From the UHGV virus genome UHGV-0138423: a stretch of 42,842 bases of DNA; one strand, written 5' to 3'. How positions within the stretch are numbered: position 1 is the first letter of the stretch; each line of letters starts with the position of its first letter. This DNA comes from a virus. The position numbers were made by a program, and so were the translations under genes. Positions 32,580 through 39,700 of the stretch are shown here, in pieces. The notes below the pieces were generated by a model. That model was not told the origin of the DNA. It worked only from the letters and a program-made list of their open reading frames with translations, and searched no databases.

Positions 32580-33362
32580 TTACCCCCTGAAGCCTGGCGG
32601 GATCGCACTGTCCGGCAACGAGACGGTGTTAACCTGTCGGAGCAACGTCTCAGGCCGAACACCTTTCGGCGCGAACAGGCCCTGGTATTCATTGGCGATG
32701 CTGTGTCGAATCACCTGCTCAGGTGTAAACCCCTGCTGACGGAATTTTTCCAGTTCCCGTATCGCCCCGTTAGCGCCCTGCTCCGTTCGAATCGGTTTTC
32801 GCAATGCCTGTCTGAACCGGACCCACTCATGCCAGAGTGTTTCCGGCAACCAATCGGGCAGCTCAATAGCCTCCGGCTCGAACTTTTTAGACGCTCGTTT
32901 TTGCCGAGGGGGATTTAGGGGGAGATCAGTATTTATATCTTCCTCTTCCTCTGGTAACGCTTTTTGATCCGTTTGTGTAACGCTGTCAGCGTTACCTTTT
33001 CGTTTCAGTTCGCGTATTTTTGTTACTCGCTCGTTTGTAACCGCCCGTTTTTTAGAGCTTTTTCCGTTATGACGTTCAAAGTTAGGTAGAGAAAGCCCAC
33101 CGTCATTTTCGACCAGCCATCCAACCTGAATTAACGCATCAGCAAAACCAGCCATAAAAGTAATGCGATCTATTGCACTTTTTGTAACGCCGCGAGCGTT
33201 ACAATCTGCGTTACCGTCTATCATTTGTTGATCCGCCCATGCCCAGAAGCGAATAACCTTCCCTAATGCGGCATCTGGATCAATATTCAGAATCTCAGCA
33301 AGCCTGAATATTTCCGGCTTATCCGGCGTAATAACCTCGAGCTTTATCCAGTTTGAAGCCAT
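32580..33362 (-). CDS. Replication initiation protein (O-like / YdaU-like)
   Basis: 260 aa gene immediately upstream of the DnaC-like gene in the replication module. Confidence 0.5.
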   Translation of the reverse strand: MASNWIKLEVITPDKPEIFRLAEILNIDPDAALGKVIRFWAWADQQMIDGNADCNARGVTKSAIDRITFMAGFADALIQVGWLVENDGGLSLPNFERHNGKSSKKRAVTNERVTKIRELKRKGNADSVTQTDQKALPEEEEDINTDLPLNPPRQKRASKKFEPEAIELPDWLPETLWHEWVRFRQALRKPIRTEQGANGAIRELEKFRQQGFTPEQVIRHSIANEYQGLFAPKGVRPETLLRQVNTVSLPDSAIPPGFRG

Positions 33363-33439
33363 TTGTTTTCACCTTGTAACGCTCGCAGCGTTACATTTAA
33401 CTGATACCGAACAAAACAGTCCGGCACGATTAATTTCAA

Positions 33440-33862
33440 TCAATGCACTACGACAGAATCGCCGGGCGATCCTCCGCCGCTGAAATGTGCTTTCCGGTAA
33501 ACGGCCTGGACTGCATCATCATGCGCATCAATTGCCGTACTCAACGCTTCCTGCGCCGCCAGTAATGCACGGCGTTCCAGGGTATCGAAGATGCAGAGTC
33601 GGTGACGCAGCTCGCGCGGAAGAATTGCCAGAACCGCAGGGATCAGTTTCTGAATTTTTTCCCTTTGCGCTTTCGTTTCACCTTTCAACCAACGGTGATA
33701 GATATTCTGCTGATTGTTCCAGTCCTTGCCTGGTACCAGGGGCAATTCGCCGCCCCCCTGGCGCAGATATTCTTCAGTAATTGCGTTAGCGACCCACGCC
33801 TGCCCTTTTTCGGCTGCCAGGGCTAACAACACTGATTCGATGTGCTCATGCCTGATTTTCAT
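33440..33862 (-). CDS. ydaT: YdaT-like protein (cII-position, Rac toxin-module homolog)
   Basis: 140 aa translationally coupled to the Cro-like ydaS homolog; synteny racR / ydaS-ydaT as in Rac. Confidence 0.6.
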   Translation of the reverse strand: MKIRHEHIESVLLALAAEKGQAWVANAITEEYLRQGGGELPLVPGKDWNNQQNIYHRWLKGETKAQREKIQKLIPAVLAILPRELRHRLCIFDTLERRALLAAQEALSTAIDAHDDAVQAVYRKAHFSGGGSPGDSVVVH

Positions 33863-34101
33863 GAATCAACCGCTCCTATGCTGTTTTCGCTATGCTTACC
33901 GTCTGGGGGGAATACATCGTCAAGTCCACAATGAGCGCCAAGCCGATTAAGGGTAGAAACAATTTTTCTGCACTCCTCTAGCCCAGGGGTACGAAAATTT
34001 GCTTCGTAATTTGCCAGTCGGCTTTGTATCCACCCTAACTGAACAGCAAGTTGTCTTTGAGACAGCCCAAGCTGTTTTCGATATGTTGAAATTTTGTTCA
34101 T
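33859..34101 (-). CDS. ydaS: Cro-like HTH regulator (YdaS-like)
   Basis: 80 aa with XRE-type HTH (..LGLSQRQLAVQLGWIQSRLANYE..), divergent from the repressor gene. Confidence 0.7.
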   Translation of the reverse strand: MNKISTYRKQLGLSQRQLAVQLGWIQSRLANYEANFRTPGLEECRKIVSTLNRLGAHCGLDDVFPPDGKHSENSIGAVDS

Positions 34102-34125
34102 TGAAAACCTCCGATGACAATTTTA

Positions 34126-34186
34126 AACACATCTTGTGTTATATGGTCAAGCTGTTTTGTGTTTTATGTAAATCACGATTCGTGAT
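34126..34186. promoter_or_regulatory. Divergent promoter/operator region between ydaS-like and racR-like genes
   Basis: Palindromes AACAC-ATCTT-GTGTT (34126-34140) and ATCACGA-T-TCGTGAT (34172-34186) within the 96 bp intergenic region. Confidence 0.45.
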
Positions 34187-34197
34187 ACAAGGATGCA

Positions 34198-34617
34198 ATG
34201 GAAAAAGAAAACGAAAAAATTGCCGCTAGTAGGCTCAATGACAAAATTGCAATGCGTCTTAAAGAGCGCAGGCAGAAGCTTGGTTTATCTCAAGGAAAAC
34301 TTGCTGAAATCTGCGGATGGACGCAATCGCGTATAGGTAACTATGAGGCGGGCAGCAGAAATGTTGGAGTGCATGACGCTGTCGTATTGGGAAAGGCACT
34401 TGGCATATCTCCTCCTGAGCTCCTCTTTGGAGAACAGGAATCTTCTGAATTGTGGTTAAATGAATCCCAACGAAAACTTCTTGAGTTGTTTAACCAGCTA
34501 CCGGGCTCAGAACAACAACGAATGATTGAGCTATTTGAAGTCCGGCTAAAAGAAATCGATGAGTATGTAGAAAAATATTTGAGAGGCAGGCTTAAAGATA
34601 ATCCCCCACCGGAGTAA
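34198..34617 (+). CDS. racR: Prophage repressor (RacR-like, cI-position)
   Basis: 139 aa with N-terminal XRE-type HTH (..LGLSQGKLAEICGWTQSRIGNYE..) and a C-terminal helical domain; divergent from the Cro-like gene. Confidence 0.75.
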   Translation: MEKENEKIAASRLNDKIAMRLKERRQKLGLSQGKLAEICGWTQSRIGNYEAGSRNVGVHDAVVLGKALGISPPELLFGEQESSELWLNESQRKLLELFNQLPGSEQQRMIELFEVRLKEIDEYVEKYLRGRLKDNPPPE

Positions 34618-34647
34618 TGATCTTGCTATCACAGTAATATGCCAATC

Positions 34648-34671
34648 AGCCCGCTATCAGCGGGCTTTTTT
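34648..34671 (+). terminator. Intrinsic terminator after the repressor gene
   Basis: AGCCCGC-TATCA-GCGGGCT followed by TTTTTTG. Confidence 0.6.
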
Positions 34672-34700
34672 GTACCATCATGATATGACACCCACCACAA

Positions 34701-34742
34701 AACACATTTCGTGTTGACATAAGAAAACGCATTGTGTTTAAT
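34701..34742 (+). promoter_or_regulatory. pL-like early-left promoter with operator-like repeats
   Basis: -35 TTGACA (34714-34719), 17 nt spacer, -10 TTTAAT (34737-34742); overlapped by AACAC-ATTTC-GTGTT (34701-34715), same architecture as the operator at 34126-34140. Confidence 0.5.
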
Positions 34743-34922
34743 AAGCATATCCAAACAACGCCCCACCAGAGAACGGCAGGACAATACCTCGAGTTATCCA
34801 GCCACTGAACAGGGCTAAGTAGCCAGCCTGAGGCATACGAACATGACGGCAGTTGTTGATTGATACAAAGCGCAGTAGATAAAACGTTCCGCCACCCGGC
34901 GTTAAGGGGAAATGAGGTCAAC

Positions 34923-35075
34923 ATGGATACTATCGATCTTGGCAACAACGAATCTCTGGTATGTGGCGTGTTTCCCAATCAGGACGGCACGTTTACCGCG
35001 ATGACGTATACCAGAAGCAAAACGTTTCAAACTGAAGCTGGCGCGCGTCGCTGGTTAACCAGAAACACTGACTGA
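34923..35075 (+). CDS. ydaF: YdaF-like small protein (DUF1391)
   Basis: 50 aa from ATG with GAGG RBS: MDTIDLGNNESLVCGVFPNQDGTFTAMTYTRSKTFQTEAGARRWLTRNTD; matches Rac YdaF as I recall it; first gene after the pL-like promoter. Confidence 0.6.
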   Translation: MDTIDLGNNESLVCGVFPNQDGTFTAMTYTRSKTFQTEAGARRWLTRNTD

Positions 35076-35086
35076 TGAGGTTGACG

Positions 35087-35461
35087 ATGGAATTTAAAGA
35101 TTTACCAGTACCATTCCAGGAAATGGCATCGAATGTGGTTCGCTCTCAACTGGCGACTCTTGACCTGAGTACCGTAGAAAAAGAAACCATCGATACTATA
35201 TCCGGTAACGTGCGTCGTGCCTTTATCGGTCTGTACGAAGAGAAGCAGCTCTCTGATAACCAGGATTTACATGAAAAATACTTCCTGGAATTAATGGACA
35301 TCCTTAATAAAGGATTTGGCTTGTTAATGAAAAAGAAAGGGATTCGAATAGCTCCCCTTGAAAATCATTTTACAGCAAGCAGTATTAATTCCTGTGATTT
35401 AAAGCATCACACATCCGATGGGAAAGTTGAATCAAACAACAAAATATCAATTAATCATTAA
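35087..35461 (+). CDS. Hypothetical protein occupying the sieB position
   Basis: 124 aa from ATG with GAGG RBS (MEFKDLPVPFQEM...); soluble-looking, no family recognised. Confidence 0.5.
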   Translation: MEFKDLPVPFQEMASNVVRSQLATLDLSTVEKETIDTISGNVRRAFIGLYEEKQLSDNQDLHEKYFLELMDILNKGFGLLMKKKGIRIAPLENHFTASSINSCDLKHHTSDGKVESNNKISINH

Positions 35462-35763
35462 TTTATTCACAGGTGAGGTAGAGTGCGTGCGCCGGACACG
35501 GATAAGAATCCGGCACTGACAGTTTACTGAAAAGGATATATCCCTGAAAAGTCAGGGCATAACGCGAAAGCGCACGGCGAAGTTCGTCTCTCTGTAGGTA
35601 GTCGTTAAATTTAATTCGACCGTGCGCTTCCGGTTGTGGCAATCCGCGAAATGGCGCGGCGGTAAGTATGGCGGGGTTATTCCTTCCCCGCTGAGGACAC
35701 CGGGTTGTCAGGTTGACCATACGCTTAAGTGACAACCCCGCTGCAACGCCCTCTGTTATCACT

Positions 35764-35802
35764 TTTCTGGTGATTCGGCGGAAACGGATATCCGCCCTTT
35801 TT
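35764..35802 (+). ncRNA. dicF: Candidate DicF-family sRNA (ends at an intrinsic terminator)
   Basis: Begins UUUCUGGUGA and ends GGCGGA-AACGGAUA-UCCGCC CUUUUU; same 5' seed and 3' terminator context as E. coli DicF as I recall it, with a shorter middle. Sits upstream of the kilR-like gene inside a stop-rich, hairpin-dense segment. Confidence 0.5.
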
Positions 35803-35985
35803 AAAGTGAATTTTGTGATGCGGTGAATGCGGCTATGCGCACGCGGAACAGTTAAAGCAGTAAGGCGGTATTTTACGGGCGTAACGAGCATCAACTAATC
35901 CGGCGTTAATTGTTAACTGGTTAACGTCACCTGGAGGCACCAGGCACCGCATCGACAAAATTCATTTGTAAAAATGGAGATAATT

Positions 35986-36207
35986 ATGATTGCTCATCAC
36001 TTCGGAACTGATGAAATACCACGTCAGTGTGTGACCCCTGGTGATTATGTTCTTCATGAAGGTCGGACATATATCGCCTCGGCAAACAATATTAAAAAGC
36101 GGAAACTTTATATTCGTAGCCTGACTACAAAAACATGCATTTCTGACTGCATGATTAAAGTCTTCCTCGGTCGTGATGGTTTACCTGTAAAGGCGGAGTC
36201 ATGGTAA
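35986..36207 (+). CDS. kilR: KilR-like cell-division inhibitor
   Basis: 73 aa from ATG after GGAGA ([31 protein letters not shown]...); size and position (between sieB-position and ydaE) as Rac kilR. Confidence 0.55.
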
Positions 36208-36377
36208 TGACTAAGAAAATAAAATGTGATTATCACCTTTGCAATAAAGAAATTGAAGAAAGCAAAATCATTACAAGACCACTTCATTTCATGCGTGGAG
36301 TTATACCAACGACGGAAATGAAAAAATATTGTAGTGAAATCTGTGCCGAAAAAGACCAGATGGCACACGAACTTTAA
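36207..36377 (+). CDS. ydaE: YdaE-like small metal-binding protein
   Basis: 56 aa ([18 protein letters not shown]...KYCSEICAEKDQMAHEL) with two Cys pairs; start overlaps the kilR-like stop (TAATG); below the ORF-track size cut-off. Confidence 0.55.
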   Translation: MTKKIKCDYHLCNKEIEESKIITRPLHFMRGVIPTTEMKKYCSEICAEKDQMAHEL

Positions 36378-36451
36378 TTAACTGACTATTCGAAACTGAA
36401 TTTATGCCAGCAATGGTAGGGATTCTTTCAACCTTAAAAAAGGAAACAGAA

Positions 36452-36748
36452 ATGAGCATTATTGAATGTGAAATTGAACTTAATGTCATTAACGATTCTC
36501 TCGCCGAATTCAAATGTGGGAATACATTACATGGTTTTATTCAGGTTTCCCAAAAAGAAAACGTTACGGTAATTATTGATGGCGGTTACGTTCTGGGAAC
36601 ATTTGATTGTTATGTGTGTGCCATTAAAGAAGTCGCATTACTCGCAGCTCGTATTGAAGAGGCTGACAAGAAATACGGCATCAGTTATCAACGGCAGAAA
36701 GAACTCTCAGGCATCGCATCATCAGTTCATTTCTTTTATGCAATCTGA
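36452..36748 (+). CDS. Hypothetical protein (RacC position)
   Basis: 98 aa from ATG after AGGAAACAGAA; immediately upstream of the RecE-like gene. Confidence 0.4.
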   Translation: MSIIECEIELNVINDSLAEFKCGNTLHGFIQVSQKENVTVIIDGGYVLGTFDCYVCAIKEVALLAARIEEADKKYGISYQRQKELSGIASSVHFFYAI

Positions 36749-36772
36749 ATATGAGTTGAGGTTAAAAAAACA

Positions 36773-39700
36773 ATGAGCACCGATAAACAAGTTTACCCAC
36801 TGTATTACGAAGCAAAAAATGACAAAGTAAGAAAACGTCTCGGTATTAAAGGCGGTTTCTACTGGGCTGAAGCGAAAAAATTATCCATTGCCATCTCCCG
36901 TGGTGCTGTTGCGATTGACGATGCTGGCTACGATGAAGATGACTTTAAAAAACCTGTTCGCGTCAATTTGCCCGTTGTTGATGACCTTCCACCAGAAGGC
37001 GTATTTGATACGGAATTTTGCAACCGTTACGAAAAAGGCGGGGAAGATGGCATCACAATGGTATTTATCGCGCCCTCATCCTCTGCGCAGGACAAAACAG
37101 CCAGCACTGACAATACCAATGTTAATGGCGAAGACATGACTGAGATTGAGGAGAATATGCTACTCCCGATTTCTGGCCAAGAGCTGCCCATCCGCTGGCT
37201 TGCTCAACACGGCAGCGAAAAACCGGTAACGCACGTTTCACGCGACGAACTCCAGGTATTACATATTGCACGGGCTGAAGAACTACCAGCTGTTACTGCC
37301 CTGGCTGTTTCCCACAAAACCAGCCTGCTCGACCCGCTGGAGATTCGCGATCTTCACAGACTGGTTCGTGATACTGACAAAGTTTTCCCTAATCCTGGCA
37401 ATTCAAGTCTGGGGCTGATGACTGCTTTTTTCGAAGCATACCTGGACGCAGACTACACCGATCGCGGTCTGCTGACAAAAGAGTGGATGAAAGGAAATCG
37501 TGTTTCACGCATCACGCGCACGGCTTCCGGCGCTAATGCTGGCGGCGGGAACCTCACCGATCGCGGCGAAGATTTCGTTCACGATCTGACGTCACTGGCG
37601 CGCGACGTAGCCACTGGCGTACTGGCTCGTTCAATGGACGTGGACATTTATAACCTTCATCCGGCACACGCTAAACGTGTCGAGGAAATTATCGCTGAAA
37701 ATAAACCGCCCTTTTCTGTTTTCCGCGACAAATTCATCGCCATGCCTGGTGGGCTGGATTATTCCCGTGCCATCGTGGTTGCGGCCGTGAAAGAAGCACC
37801 AATTGGTATCGAGGTCATCACTGCGCATGTCACTGAATATCTGAACAAGGTACTTATTGAAACCGATCATGCCAACCCTGATCCAGAAATCGTGGATATT
37901 GCCTGCGGTCGCTCCTCTGCCCCGATGCCGCAGCGTGTAACAGAAGAAGAAAAACAGGATGACGAAGAAAAACCGCAACCATCTGGCGCAATGGCATATG
38001 AACAGGCAACGGCTGAAACAGTGGAACCGGATGCAACTGAACATCATCAGGACACGCAGCCGCTGGATGCTCAGTCACAGGTAAATTCTGTTGATGCGAA
38101 ATATCTGAAACTGCGGGCAGAACTCCATGAAGCCCGGAAAAACATTCCGCCAAAAAATCCTGTCGATGCAGACAAATTACTGGCTGCCTCTCGCGGAGAA
38201 TTTGTTGAAGGGATTAGCGACCCGAATGATCCGAAATGGGTTAATGGGATCCAGACCCGCGATTCTGTGTACCAGAATCAGCCAGAAACGAAACAGCCTG
38301 AGCCAGTAGTGCAACAACAGGAAACGGAGAAAGTTTGCACCGCCTGCGGTCAGGCTGGCGGCGGCAACTGTCCTGACTGTGGCGCGGTGATGGGCGACGC
38401 AACGTATCAGAAAACCTTTAATGAAGAAAATCAGAATGAATATCAGGAAAAAGGTCTGGAGGAAATGGAAGGTGCTGAACATCCGCACAAGGAGAACGCT
38501 GGCAACCATTCGCATCATGATTGCAGTGATGAAACTGGTGAAGCGTCAGTTCCTGTAGCAACTGAAATCATGTGGCCGTCATATTTCGAGCCTGGACGTT
38601 ATGAAAACCTCCCGAACGAGGTTTATCACTCCGCCAACGGAATAAGCAGCACGATGCTGAAGGATGCCCGTATCAGCCTGATGTATTACCACGGGCGGCA
38701 CATTGCCGGAACTATTCCGGGCGAGGAAAGTGATGCATTGCTGCGTGGGCGGATTATTCACAGCTATGTTCTGGAAACGGATAAATTCGCTGATGAGTAT
38801 GCCATTCCGGTACCGGTTCCTGAATATGTGGTTACTACTTCTAACGAACTGATCGCCATCATTAAAAAACACAATGCCAGTCTGCCAGCACCGATGACAC
38901 CAGAGCAGATGAAAGAGTGGATCGAAAGCTACAACAGCACTCTTATACAGCCACTGTCGGTAAGTGCCGGGGCCGAAGAAACAGGCATCCTTTACGGTTC
39001 GCTTCCGGAGGAATTCCGGCGTATTCCTGAGAGGGAAAAACACACAGCATCAGCAATGAAAGCCTGTATTAAAGAATACAACGCAAACCTCCCTCCTCTG
39101 TTGAAAACCAGTGGATCACGGGAGCAACTTCTGGAGCAAATTGAAACTGTAAATCCAGAACTGGCAAAAAAAGAACGTGCTAAATCTTTGCCTTACAACA
39201 TCAGTGGCACAAAAGAGCAATTAACCGAAATCGCACGGAAAATTCGCCCGGAACTGGTGACTCTGGAAGACTGGCAAAAACGCCAGCAAGAAGAAAACGC
39301 CGGGAAAACGTTTATCAGTCCGGATATGTATGAACAGGCAAAAAATATTCACGCTGCACTGCAAAACAATACCGATGCAGCAAGGCTACTCAACCACCCG
39401 GATCGCAAATCTGAAATCAGCTATTTCGGGTTTGATGAAGAAACCGGGCTGGAAATCAGGGTCCGTCCTGATATCGAAATCCGGCTGCCATACGAAAGCA
39501 TTTGCGCCGACGTGAAGTCAGTCAGCCTCGGTTATGTGCGACAGGAACGACTGAAAGATCGGCTGCACCGTGAAATTATTGAGCGTGATTATCACCTCAG
39601 CGCAGCAATGTACTGCGATGTGGCAAACCTGGACAAATTTTTCTGGATCTTCGTCAACAAAGATGCTGGCTATCACTGGGTGGCCGTCGTGGAAGCCTCG

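Follow-up and report, generated by a model that had tools for sequence, protein, structure and literature searches.

The window analysed here is the whole 42,842-nucleotide stretch of UHGV virus genome UHGV-0138423, a Rac-like lambdoid prophage of E. coli, and our subject is the set of short palindromes on either side of the repressor gene in its immunity region. The locus reads, in order, as a ydaT-family gene and a cro-like gene, both on the minus strand, a 96-bp gap, a repressor gene on the plus strand, a terminator, a region containing TTGACA, a leader, and then DUF1391, KilR-like and RecE-like open reading frames (ORFs). The repressor, a protein of 139 amino acids (aa; 34198..34617, +), joins an HTH_3 N-terminal domain of the lambda-CI/434-like kind to a DicA-like C-terminal domain, and the Cro-like protein (80 aa; 33859..34101, -) also carries an HTH_3 domain (Pfam, E 6.7e-10) and is not YdaS-like. 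E. coli C25 is 99.9% identical over the 1.7 kb surrounding this operator and immunity locus, which 153 of 5426 complete E. coli genomes (~3%) carry at a coverage of at least 80%.

A preliminary description of this DNA had placed the motif AACAC-N5-GTGTT in both regulatory gaps, and this was borne out. AACACATCTTGTGTT lies at 34126-34140, in the gap between the Cro-like (34101..33859) and repressor genes, and AACACATTTCGTGTT lies at 34701-34715, beyond the repressor gene; the motif occurs nowhere else in the 42.8 kb. A third perfect palindrome, ATCACGATTCGTGAT (34172-34186), ends 12 nt 5' of the repressor ATG. The two exact occurrences of AACAC-N5-GTGTT compare with 0.07 expected, and 1 of 100 shuffles gave at least two. 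Relaxing the motif to AWCAC-N5-GTGWT recovered exactly these three sites, against 0.14 expected, and none of 100 shuffles reached three. In a motif-blind test, which asked for a perfect 5-Nk-5 inverted repeat common to both intergenic regions, 2 of 5000 shuffles yielded one. Given these motif counts and shuffle tests, a chance origin of the palindromes is unlikely.

The right-hand sites can be laid out by their distance from the repressor ATG. The equivalent of the first site of the lambda right operator (OR1), AACAC-ATCTT-GTGTT (34126..34140), is centred 65 bp 5' of the ATG and falls between the -35 and -10 of a putative rightward (PR-like) promoter for the Cro-like/YdaT operon (34120..34150, -). 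This promoter was read from the sequence, with a -35 of TTGACC (34150..34145) and two candidate -10 elements, TTTAAA (34127..34122, 17-bp spacer) and TAAAAT (34125..34120, 19-bp spacer); its start is predicted at ~34113. The OR2-equivalent, AAGCT-GTTTT-GTGTT (34149..34163, centre -42), is a weak site or half-site in which the right arm alone matches (GTGTT, 34159-34163), and its centre is exactly 23 bp from the centre of each right-hand palindrome. The OR3-equivalent, ATCAC-GATTC-GTGAT (34172..34186, centre -19), overlaps the -10 of a candidate promoter of the repressor itself (PRM-like; 34183..34198, +), which has an extended -10 consisting of TG (34183-4), A and TACAAG (34186-91). From this spacing the repressor mRNA is predicted to be leaderless, starting at the A of the ATG at 34198. 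The preliminary description had treated the palindrome next to the repressor start as separate from the others. It is present, but the separateness did not hold: the site stands in the 23-bp register, and by its arms it is of the same class as the two exact palindromes, A[A/T]CAC-N5-GTG[T/A]T, with ATCACGATTCGTGAT as the third member of a tripartite right operator.

On the left-hand side two sites were found. The first, AACAC-ATTTC-GTGTT (34701..34715), is equivalent to OL2 of the lambda left operator (OL) and lies at the -35 of a putative leftward (PL-like) promoter for the DUF1391/kilR/recE arm (34714..34744, +); the overlap proposed in the preliminary description is real, the right arm covering 2 nt of TTGACA (34714-34719). 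The second, the OL1-equivalent AAAAC-GCATT-GTGTT (AAAACGCATTGTGTT, 34724..34738), carries one mismatch and sits between -35 and -10, with its centre exactly 23 bp from that of the first. This site and the right-hand half-site at 34159-34163 had been missed in the preliminary description. A third left-hand site was sought in the window at 23 bp on either side of the pair, before 34701 and after 34738, and no match was found. The PL-like -35, TTGACA (34714-19), was again read from the sequence, and the candidate -10 elements are TTTAAT (34737-42, 17 bp) and TAATAA (34739-44, 19 bp). Transcription had earlier been proposed to begin near 34749; a start at ~34748-34752 is predicted, although the two -10 options leave its exact position ambiguous. 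On opposite strands, the PL-like unit (+) and the PR-like unit (-) align without gaps, as TTGAC[A/C], a 4-nt gap, the 15-bp operator and TAA. A group whose repressor is 84% identical to that of the window favours TTTAAT at 17-18 bp as the left -10 and TAGAAT or TAAAAT at 19 bp as the right -10, but does not settle the choice.

In support of these assignments, phage and genome searches provided ten relatives with repressors 57-66% identical to that of the window: Citrobacter phage Chris1, Aeromonas phage pAEv1818, phage pPE4, prophages of Citrobacter, Dryocola, Pectobacterium, Enterobacter and Raoultella, and a contig labelled Sphingomonas. All ten have a CAC-N5-GTG dyad centred 50-70 bp 5' of the repressor ATG, and nine (the exception being L012) have a second one centred 13-22 bp 5' of it; one-mismatch sites or half-sites occupy the OR2-equivalent register. 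Those relatives that have a downstream promoter carry a further dyad ~100 bp past the repressor stop, overlapping a TTGAC -35. This left dyad is usually joined by a second site 23-25 bp on, and the equivalent of the second left site is present in Chris1, pAEv1818, L013 and pPE4; Citrobacter-group relatives have a downstream half-site, AAACAC, at the left set. The N5 centres and all flanks differ among the relatives, while the positions of the sites are kept. In the alignment, the columns that never change are those of the operator arms and the -35 elements, together with the TAA that follows the first operator and the TGnTA in the promoter of the repressor. At the PR-like promoter, the columns that read TCAA and TTA, the complements of TTGA and TAA, do not change across nine relatives, the PL-like -35 is conserved, and at the repressor promoter TGnTAnAAx is followed after 6-7 nt (9 nt in pAEv1818) by ATG.

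Variation within the population tells the same sites apart from their surroundings. We collected 80 IMG/VR loci (L025-L104), comprising 35 distinct right-hand and 53 distinct left-hand sequences, and the arms of both 34126-34140 and 34701-34715 were invariant throughout, as was TTTTGTGTTTT at the OR2-equivalent site. Within a near-identical group (repressor at least 98% identical; 66 loci, with 25 distinct right-hand and 37 left-hand sequences), none of 30 arm positions defined a priori varied, compared with 67 of 194 other intergenic positions (p = 1.7e-5). Nucleotide diversity in this group was 0 in the arms and 0.053 in the non-arm intergenic sequence, and at third codon positions it was 0.025 in the repressor gene and 0.072 in cro. 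This absence of diversity in the arms amid neutral-like surroundings indicates that the operator arms are under purifying selection against a roughly neutral background. The left spacer site (34724-34738) follows suit in part, its right arm being invariant and its left arm nearly so, with highly variable flanks and N5 spacer. We also noted that the changes in this group cluster in the N5 centres, as well as in the 4-5 nt that separate the -35 from the spacer operator. These stretches are about as diverse as the synonymous positions of the flanking genes, a pattern that looks neutral rather than diversifying.

The arms change together with the recognition helix of the repressor. Repressors with the helix GW[TA]QSRIGNYE accompany arms of AACAC/ATCAC; those with GW[SA]TASRVGNYE, paired with a Cro in which RSR replaces QSR, accompany GACAC/GCCAC; and the pPE4 helix, GWSGSSRIANYE, accompanies TTCAC/CTCAC. 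No CAC-N5-GTG sites were found in relatives with the same C-terminal domain and an unrelated helix-turn-helix (HTH). In lambda, the recognition helix begins with Gln-Ser, and these residues contact two bases of the half-site, A2 and the G paired with C4 (1LMB structure); the loss of A at position 2 that we observe when Gln is lost fits these contacts.

Phage pPE4 deserves separate description. Between its segment L002 2176-2905 and window 33859-34617 the Cro-like proteins are 100% identical, the repressors are 64% identical, and the pPE4 operators are TTCAC/CTCAC-N5-GTGAG; the mosaic junction between the two coincides with the cro start codon. It may be that this Cro recognises no more than the CAC/GTG core; the alternative is a mismatched pairing of Cro and operator in pPE4. 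This phage was deposited as an Actinobacillus phage, and the sequence here is E. coli Rac-like.

The proteins themselves point to a DicA-type repressor with a paralogous Cro. By blastp the repressor matches DicA at 28.7% identity over 129 of its 139 aa (E 2.5e-14), a full-length homology that includes the HTH_3 N-terminal domain and the ~55-aa helical C-terminal domain of DicA-type short repressors, and its closest phage homologue, the repressor of pPE4, is annotated 'repressor DicA'. Identity to the lambda CI N-terminal domain is 31% over 75 aa, and matches to solved structures involve HTH domains only. Pfam likewise finds only HTH families, with no C-terminal S24 peptidase domain, which in the cleavable lambda-CI/LexA type carries an Ala-Gly cleavage site, in the 139 aa, so that induction by RecA-stimulated self-cleavage of the repressor is probably not the route; by analogy with DicA, an antirepressor could possibly induce this prophage. 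The Cro-like protein is 45% identical to the repressor HTH over 42 aa, and the recognition-helix motifs are nearly the same (GWIQSRLANYE in the Cro-like protein, GWTQSRIGNYE in the repressor). Because of this paralogy and the nearly identical helix, the Cro-like protein probably binds the operators of the repressor.

The labels racR-like and ydaS-like, and with them the Rac-type immunity genes of the preliminary description, had to be abandoned. A RacR identity of the repressor is ruled out by the lack of any blastp match to K-12 RacR and by the absence of the RacR operator, and a YdaS identity of the Cro-like protein is ruled out by a best blastp match of E 0.12 over 28 aa; neither protein has blastp similarity to its supposed namesake, and the repressor is DicA-like. 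The RacR operator, (T/A)TAGGC-N3-GCCTA(T/A) (PMC9638921), has zero occurrences in the window even with one mismatch allowed. The comparison with the Rac racR-ydaS intergenic region that had been suggested as a check gave the same answer for the core TAGGC-N3-GCCTA, which the window lacks. Judged by these matches, the Rac type is confined to YdaT and the genes of the left arm and does not extend to the immunity genes.

We hold with good confidence that the palindromes are operators of a lambda-type bistable immunity switch in a Rac-like E. coli prophage, through which the repressor would silence both early arms. The locus has what a lambdoid CI/Cro system has: divergent genes, a 96-bp gap, several dyads overlapping PR-like and PRM-like elements, and the same motif at a second early promoter beyond the repressor gene (34701-15, 34724-38). 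The earlier proposal that one repressor controls both arms in a lambda-like OR/OL layout thus finds strong comparative support, at the level of sequence. Dimers of the 139-aa repressor would recognise A[A/T]CAC-N5-GTG[T/A]T, and by occupying the OR1-like and OR2-like sites they would block the Cro-like/YdaT promoter. The OR2-like site (-42) is placed where a bound repressor might contact RNA polymerase at the repressor's own promoter, as lambda CI does in activating PRM. The OR3-like site, lying over the extended -10, would provide for autorepression or for shut-off by the Cro-like protein. At the left sites, 34701-15 and 34724-38, the repressor would cover the -35 and spacer of the DUF1391-kilR-recE/recT promoter and so silence the left arm. 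From the sites and their conservation we infer repressor and Cro binding and promoter repression, as well as cooperativity, promoter activity and start sites.

Several observations weigh against this picture. A consensus promoter scan did not call the PL-like promoter, whose -10 is non-canonical: TTTAAT has no A at position 2, the reason for the missed call, and TAATAA would require a spacer of 19 bp. The OR2-like site is a half-site only, and the left spacer site loses its left arm in the group with the 84%-identical repressor; with two such weak sites, occupancy would need cooperativity. The pairing in pPE4 of a Cro identical to that of the window with TTCAC/CTCAC-type operators means that Cro specificity is not simply readable from the outer arm bases. 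Finally, no paper in the searchable literature was found to contain the exact operator strings.

The weak left -10 and the uncalled promoter would also suit a different arrangement, in which the downstream sites are real repressor sites without a promoter, serving as auxiliaries for looping or as a roadblock to read-through, and the kilR/recE arm is driven from elsewhere. The intrinsic terminator of the repressor transcript (34648..34673, +; an 8-bp stem with 6 GC pairs, then a T-run) lies just 5' of the left sites and of the PL-like promoter, and the ~575 bp between the operator sets is compatible with looping. We nevertheless think this arrangement improbable. All relatives, as well as lambda and phage mEp213, have a perfect TTGACA, or TTGAC, at an unchanged distance from the operator; the PL-like unit aligns gap-free to the PR-like unit; and from the terminator to the start of the left arm's first gene the consensus scan found no other promoter-like site. 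In addition, a conserved untranslated leader of the left operon (~175 nt; 34746..34922, +) begins at the predicted start. Sequence common to different immunity types begins at ~34746, which places a mosaic junction at the predicted PL-like start as well.

Less probable again is that the main binder of the sites is not the 139-aa repressor but the Cro-like protein or another regulator of the prophage, for instance YdaT. The Cro-like protein does have the same kind of recognition helix as the repressor, and YdaT binds DNA and regulates this region in Rac and CP-933P (PMC11879457, PMC9986795). The arms, however, co-vary with the repressor helix and vanish where the repressor HTH has been replaced, with the qualification that the Cro-like gene differs in those loci too. 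In pPE4, moreover, the same Cro accompanies a different repressor and different operators. As for YdaT, it recognises TTGATT-N6-AATCAA, and such a box lies elsewhere, at 33852-33869; on this ground we ruled it out as the binder of the palindromes. That the palindromes have no protein-binding role and merely reflect duplication or shared ancestry of the PL-like and PR-like promoters, which align over ~45 bp and could in part be paralogous, can be dismissed as very improbable: the arms are dyad-symmetric and invariant while spacers and flanks vary at neutral-like rates, the OR3-like site lies outside the duplicated promoter unit and yet is of the same class and keeps its position, and the arms co-vary with the recognition helix.

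Around this repressor-operator unit the remaining features are largely those of Rac. The YdaT-family gene (33440..33862, -; Pfam YdaT_toxin E 5e-11), the second gene of the rightward (Cro) operon and the CII-equivalent, encodes a protein 95% identical to K-12 Rac YdaT. A YdaT-box-like sequence, CTGATTTTCATGAATCAA, overlaps its start codon (33852-33869); we call it so because it matches the published YdaT-box, which is ATGATT-N6-AATCAA in K-12 and TTGATT-N6-AATCAA in CP-933P (PMC11879457). A weaker copy, ACGATTAATTTCAATCAA, is found at the ydaT stop (33426-33443). On the other side, an equivalent of the terminator hairpin and T-run follows the repressor gene in the relatives, and the left operon opens with a DUF1391 protein gene of the ydaF/ydfA kind (34923..35075, +; Pfam DUF1391 E 8e-28). 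With a YdaT-family gene after cro and DUF1391, KilR-like and RecE-like ORFs in the left arm, the backbone is Rac-like, and by these comparisons the element is a mosaic of a Rac backbone and a DicA/lambda-like immunity module. Just 5' of the KilR-like ORF and overlapping its start, a stretch at 35799-35993 (+) gave a sub-threshold Rfam match to the small RNA (sRNA) STnc100 (34.7 bits against a gathering score of 47); this stretch may be the counterpart of the KilS sRNA region that K-12 annotation places beside kilR.

The leader is shared well beyond this immunity type. It is 100% identical in pPE4 and ~80% identical in K-12 Rac, and blocks of it are common to relatives of other immunity types; we located it in L002, L006 (2955-3135, -), L001 (3029-3140), L004 and L013-L018. 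A core of ~70 nt (GTCATC...GGCAGGAnGCCCACGAAGTAGCTGCCGGCGGCATACGAA...GATGAC) is nearly invariant across genera and unrelated immunity types. The leader may be a cis-acting RNA. An Rfam scan of 33000-37000 returned no match to the leader (34746-34922); its only hits, all sub-threshold and unrelated, were the STnc100 stretch and a spurious Trp_leader match over the terminator. RNAalifold gave weak support, with one compensatory pair. An HK022 put-like antiterminator RNA was rejected as its identity: blastn found no match, and blastn-short against the HK022 immunity region gave chance-level hits only.

Among known systems, lambda itself is a close parallel. Both have divergent repressor and cro genes and a left promoter after the repressor gene, and both have operators of the same class, 17-bp dyads with arms of ATCAC or AACAC separated by 5 bp: the sequence of OR2 in lambda is T-AACAC-CGTGC-GTGTT-G, and ATCAC is the arm of the lambda consensus. 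Measured from the repressor ATG, the centres of lambda OR1, OR2 and OR3 lie at -66, -42 and -19 (cI being leaderless), compared with -65, -42 and -19 here. The geometry of PRM is the same base for base, GTGA-TAGATT-TAACGT-ATG in lambda and GTGA-TACAAG-GATGCA-ATG in the window; in each, the OR3 arm nearer the promoter shares its last base with the -10 hexamer, which starts there, and six bases separate the hexamer from the ATG. The 12-mer GTGTTGACATAA is common to lambda OL2/PL and the left site at 34701-34715, and the HTH domains are homologous, with recognition helices that start Gln-Ser. The differences are equally clear. The repressor here is a 139-aa protein with a DicA-like C-terminal domain and without the S24 self-cleavage domain; the operator centres are AT-rich, where lambda has CCGCC; the left set is made up of two sites instead of three, and on the right the middle one is a half-site; the role of CII falls to a YdaT-family protein; a long conserved leader, and no N gene, follows the left promoter; and the operator sets lie ~0.58 kb apart rather than 2.3 kb.

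The common half-site, the -66/-42/-19 geometry, the PRM layout and GTGTTGACATAA at PL would allow the reading that the repressor N-terminal domain and its operators are a direct evolutionary sibling of lambda OR/OL, joined to a non-cleavable DicA-type C-terminal domain, though we consider this unlikely. Should the resemblance be functional, lambda-family CI/Cro and the regulators of this prophage could recognise each other's operators (ATCACGATTCGTGAT matches both outer arms of the lambda consensus), in which case prophages resident in the same cell would show partial cross-immunity or cross-talk in regulation.

The DicA system of Qin, a prophage of E. coli K-12, resembles the window in its short non-cleavable repressor, a full-length homologue, in its divergent Cro-like gene, and in having a DUF1391 gene first behind the repressed promoter after the repressor (ydfA in Qin; 34923-35075 here). 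In Rac, by comparison, ydaF lies downstream of racR, after ydaG. DicA represses dicBp, and operators have been reported at dicCp and dicBp (PMC10448788). Qin differs in its recognition helix and operators, which are TGTTAG/CTAAC-type repeats, in a DicC that is unrelated to the Cro-like protein here, and in its downstream cargo, dicBF as opposed to kilR/recET. CP-933P, a prophage of E. coli O157:H7, shares the Rac-like backbone, a YdaT-family CII-equivalent, a repressor gene that is leaderless (here by prediction) and a ~97-bp intergenic region with multiple operators. Its PL-like promoter has the same operators as PR, and PaaR2 and YdaS were shown experimentally to repress that PL-like promoter (PMC8630535). 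It is set apart by its published operator consensus, with GTTTAGTAA palindromes in four inverted repeats, and by a toxin-antitoxin pair after paaR2 (PMC8630535).

K-12 Rac has the 95%-identical YdaT, together with DUF1391, kilR, recE and the conserved leader, in common with the window. Its own motif, TAGGC-N3-GCCTA, recurs over a TTGACA-17-TATAGT promoter downstream of racR. In the K-12 Rac locus (L006), ~98-150 nt past the racR stop and ahead of ydaG, the dyads TTAGGC-ATA-GCCTAT and ATTAGGCATTACCTAT overlap TTGACA-17-TATAGT. K-12 Rac thus also seems, from its sequence, to have an OL/PL-like unit; the RacR literature describes operators at the racR-ydaS intergenic region only. Two further relatives (L015 and L018) share a TAAAC-N5-GTTTA motif between OR and a downstream TTGACA promoter. 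As K-12 Rac and these relatives each repeat their own motif at both places, the layout appears general for this prophage group. Silencing of racR derepresses kilR, recE and recT (bioRxiv 10.64898/2026.09.06.749655).

Phage mEp213 is also close in its immunity region. The N-terminal domain of its CI is 58% identical to the repressor here, with a nearly identical recognition helix, and it has operators of the same class, three at OR and three at OL, one of which, the PL site ATCACATTTCGTGTTGACA, is one base from the 34701-34715 site. Its differences from the window lie in a full-length CI of 213 aa, which has a long C-terminal domain like that of lambda CI, in a CII of the lambda type, in the presence of N, and in a backbone that is not Rac-like; mEp213 is a classical temperate phage.

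The layout described here is already known from lambda and Qin DicA, and experimentally for CP-933P, and conceptually it adds nothing beyond the lambda paradigm. What these comparisons provide is an operator map for one immunity type, on which five sites and three promoters are marked along with a repressor mRNA predicted to be leaderless, and a corrected annotation, in which a Rac-type backbone carries a DicA/lambda-like immunity module and not the RacR module. They also indicate that, across several immunity specificities unrelated to one another, Rac-like prophages have operators at both the divergent and the left-arm promoters, which bears on how the toxic kilR, ydaT and recET are kept silent.

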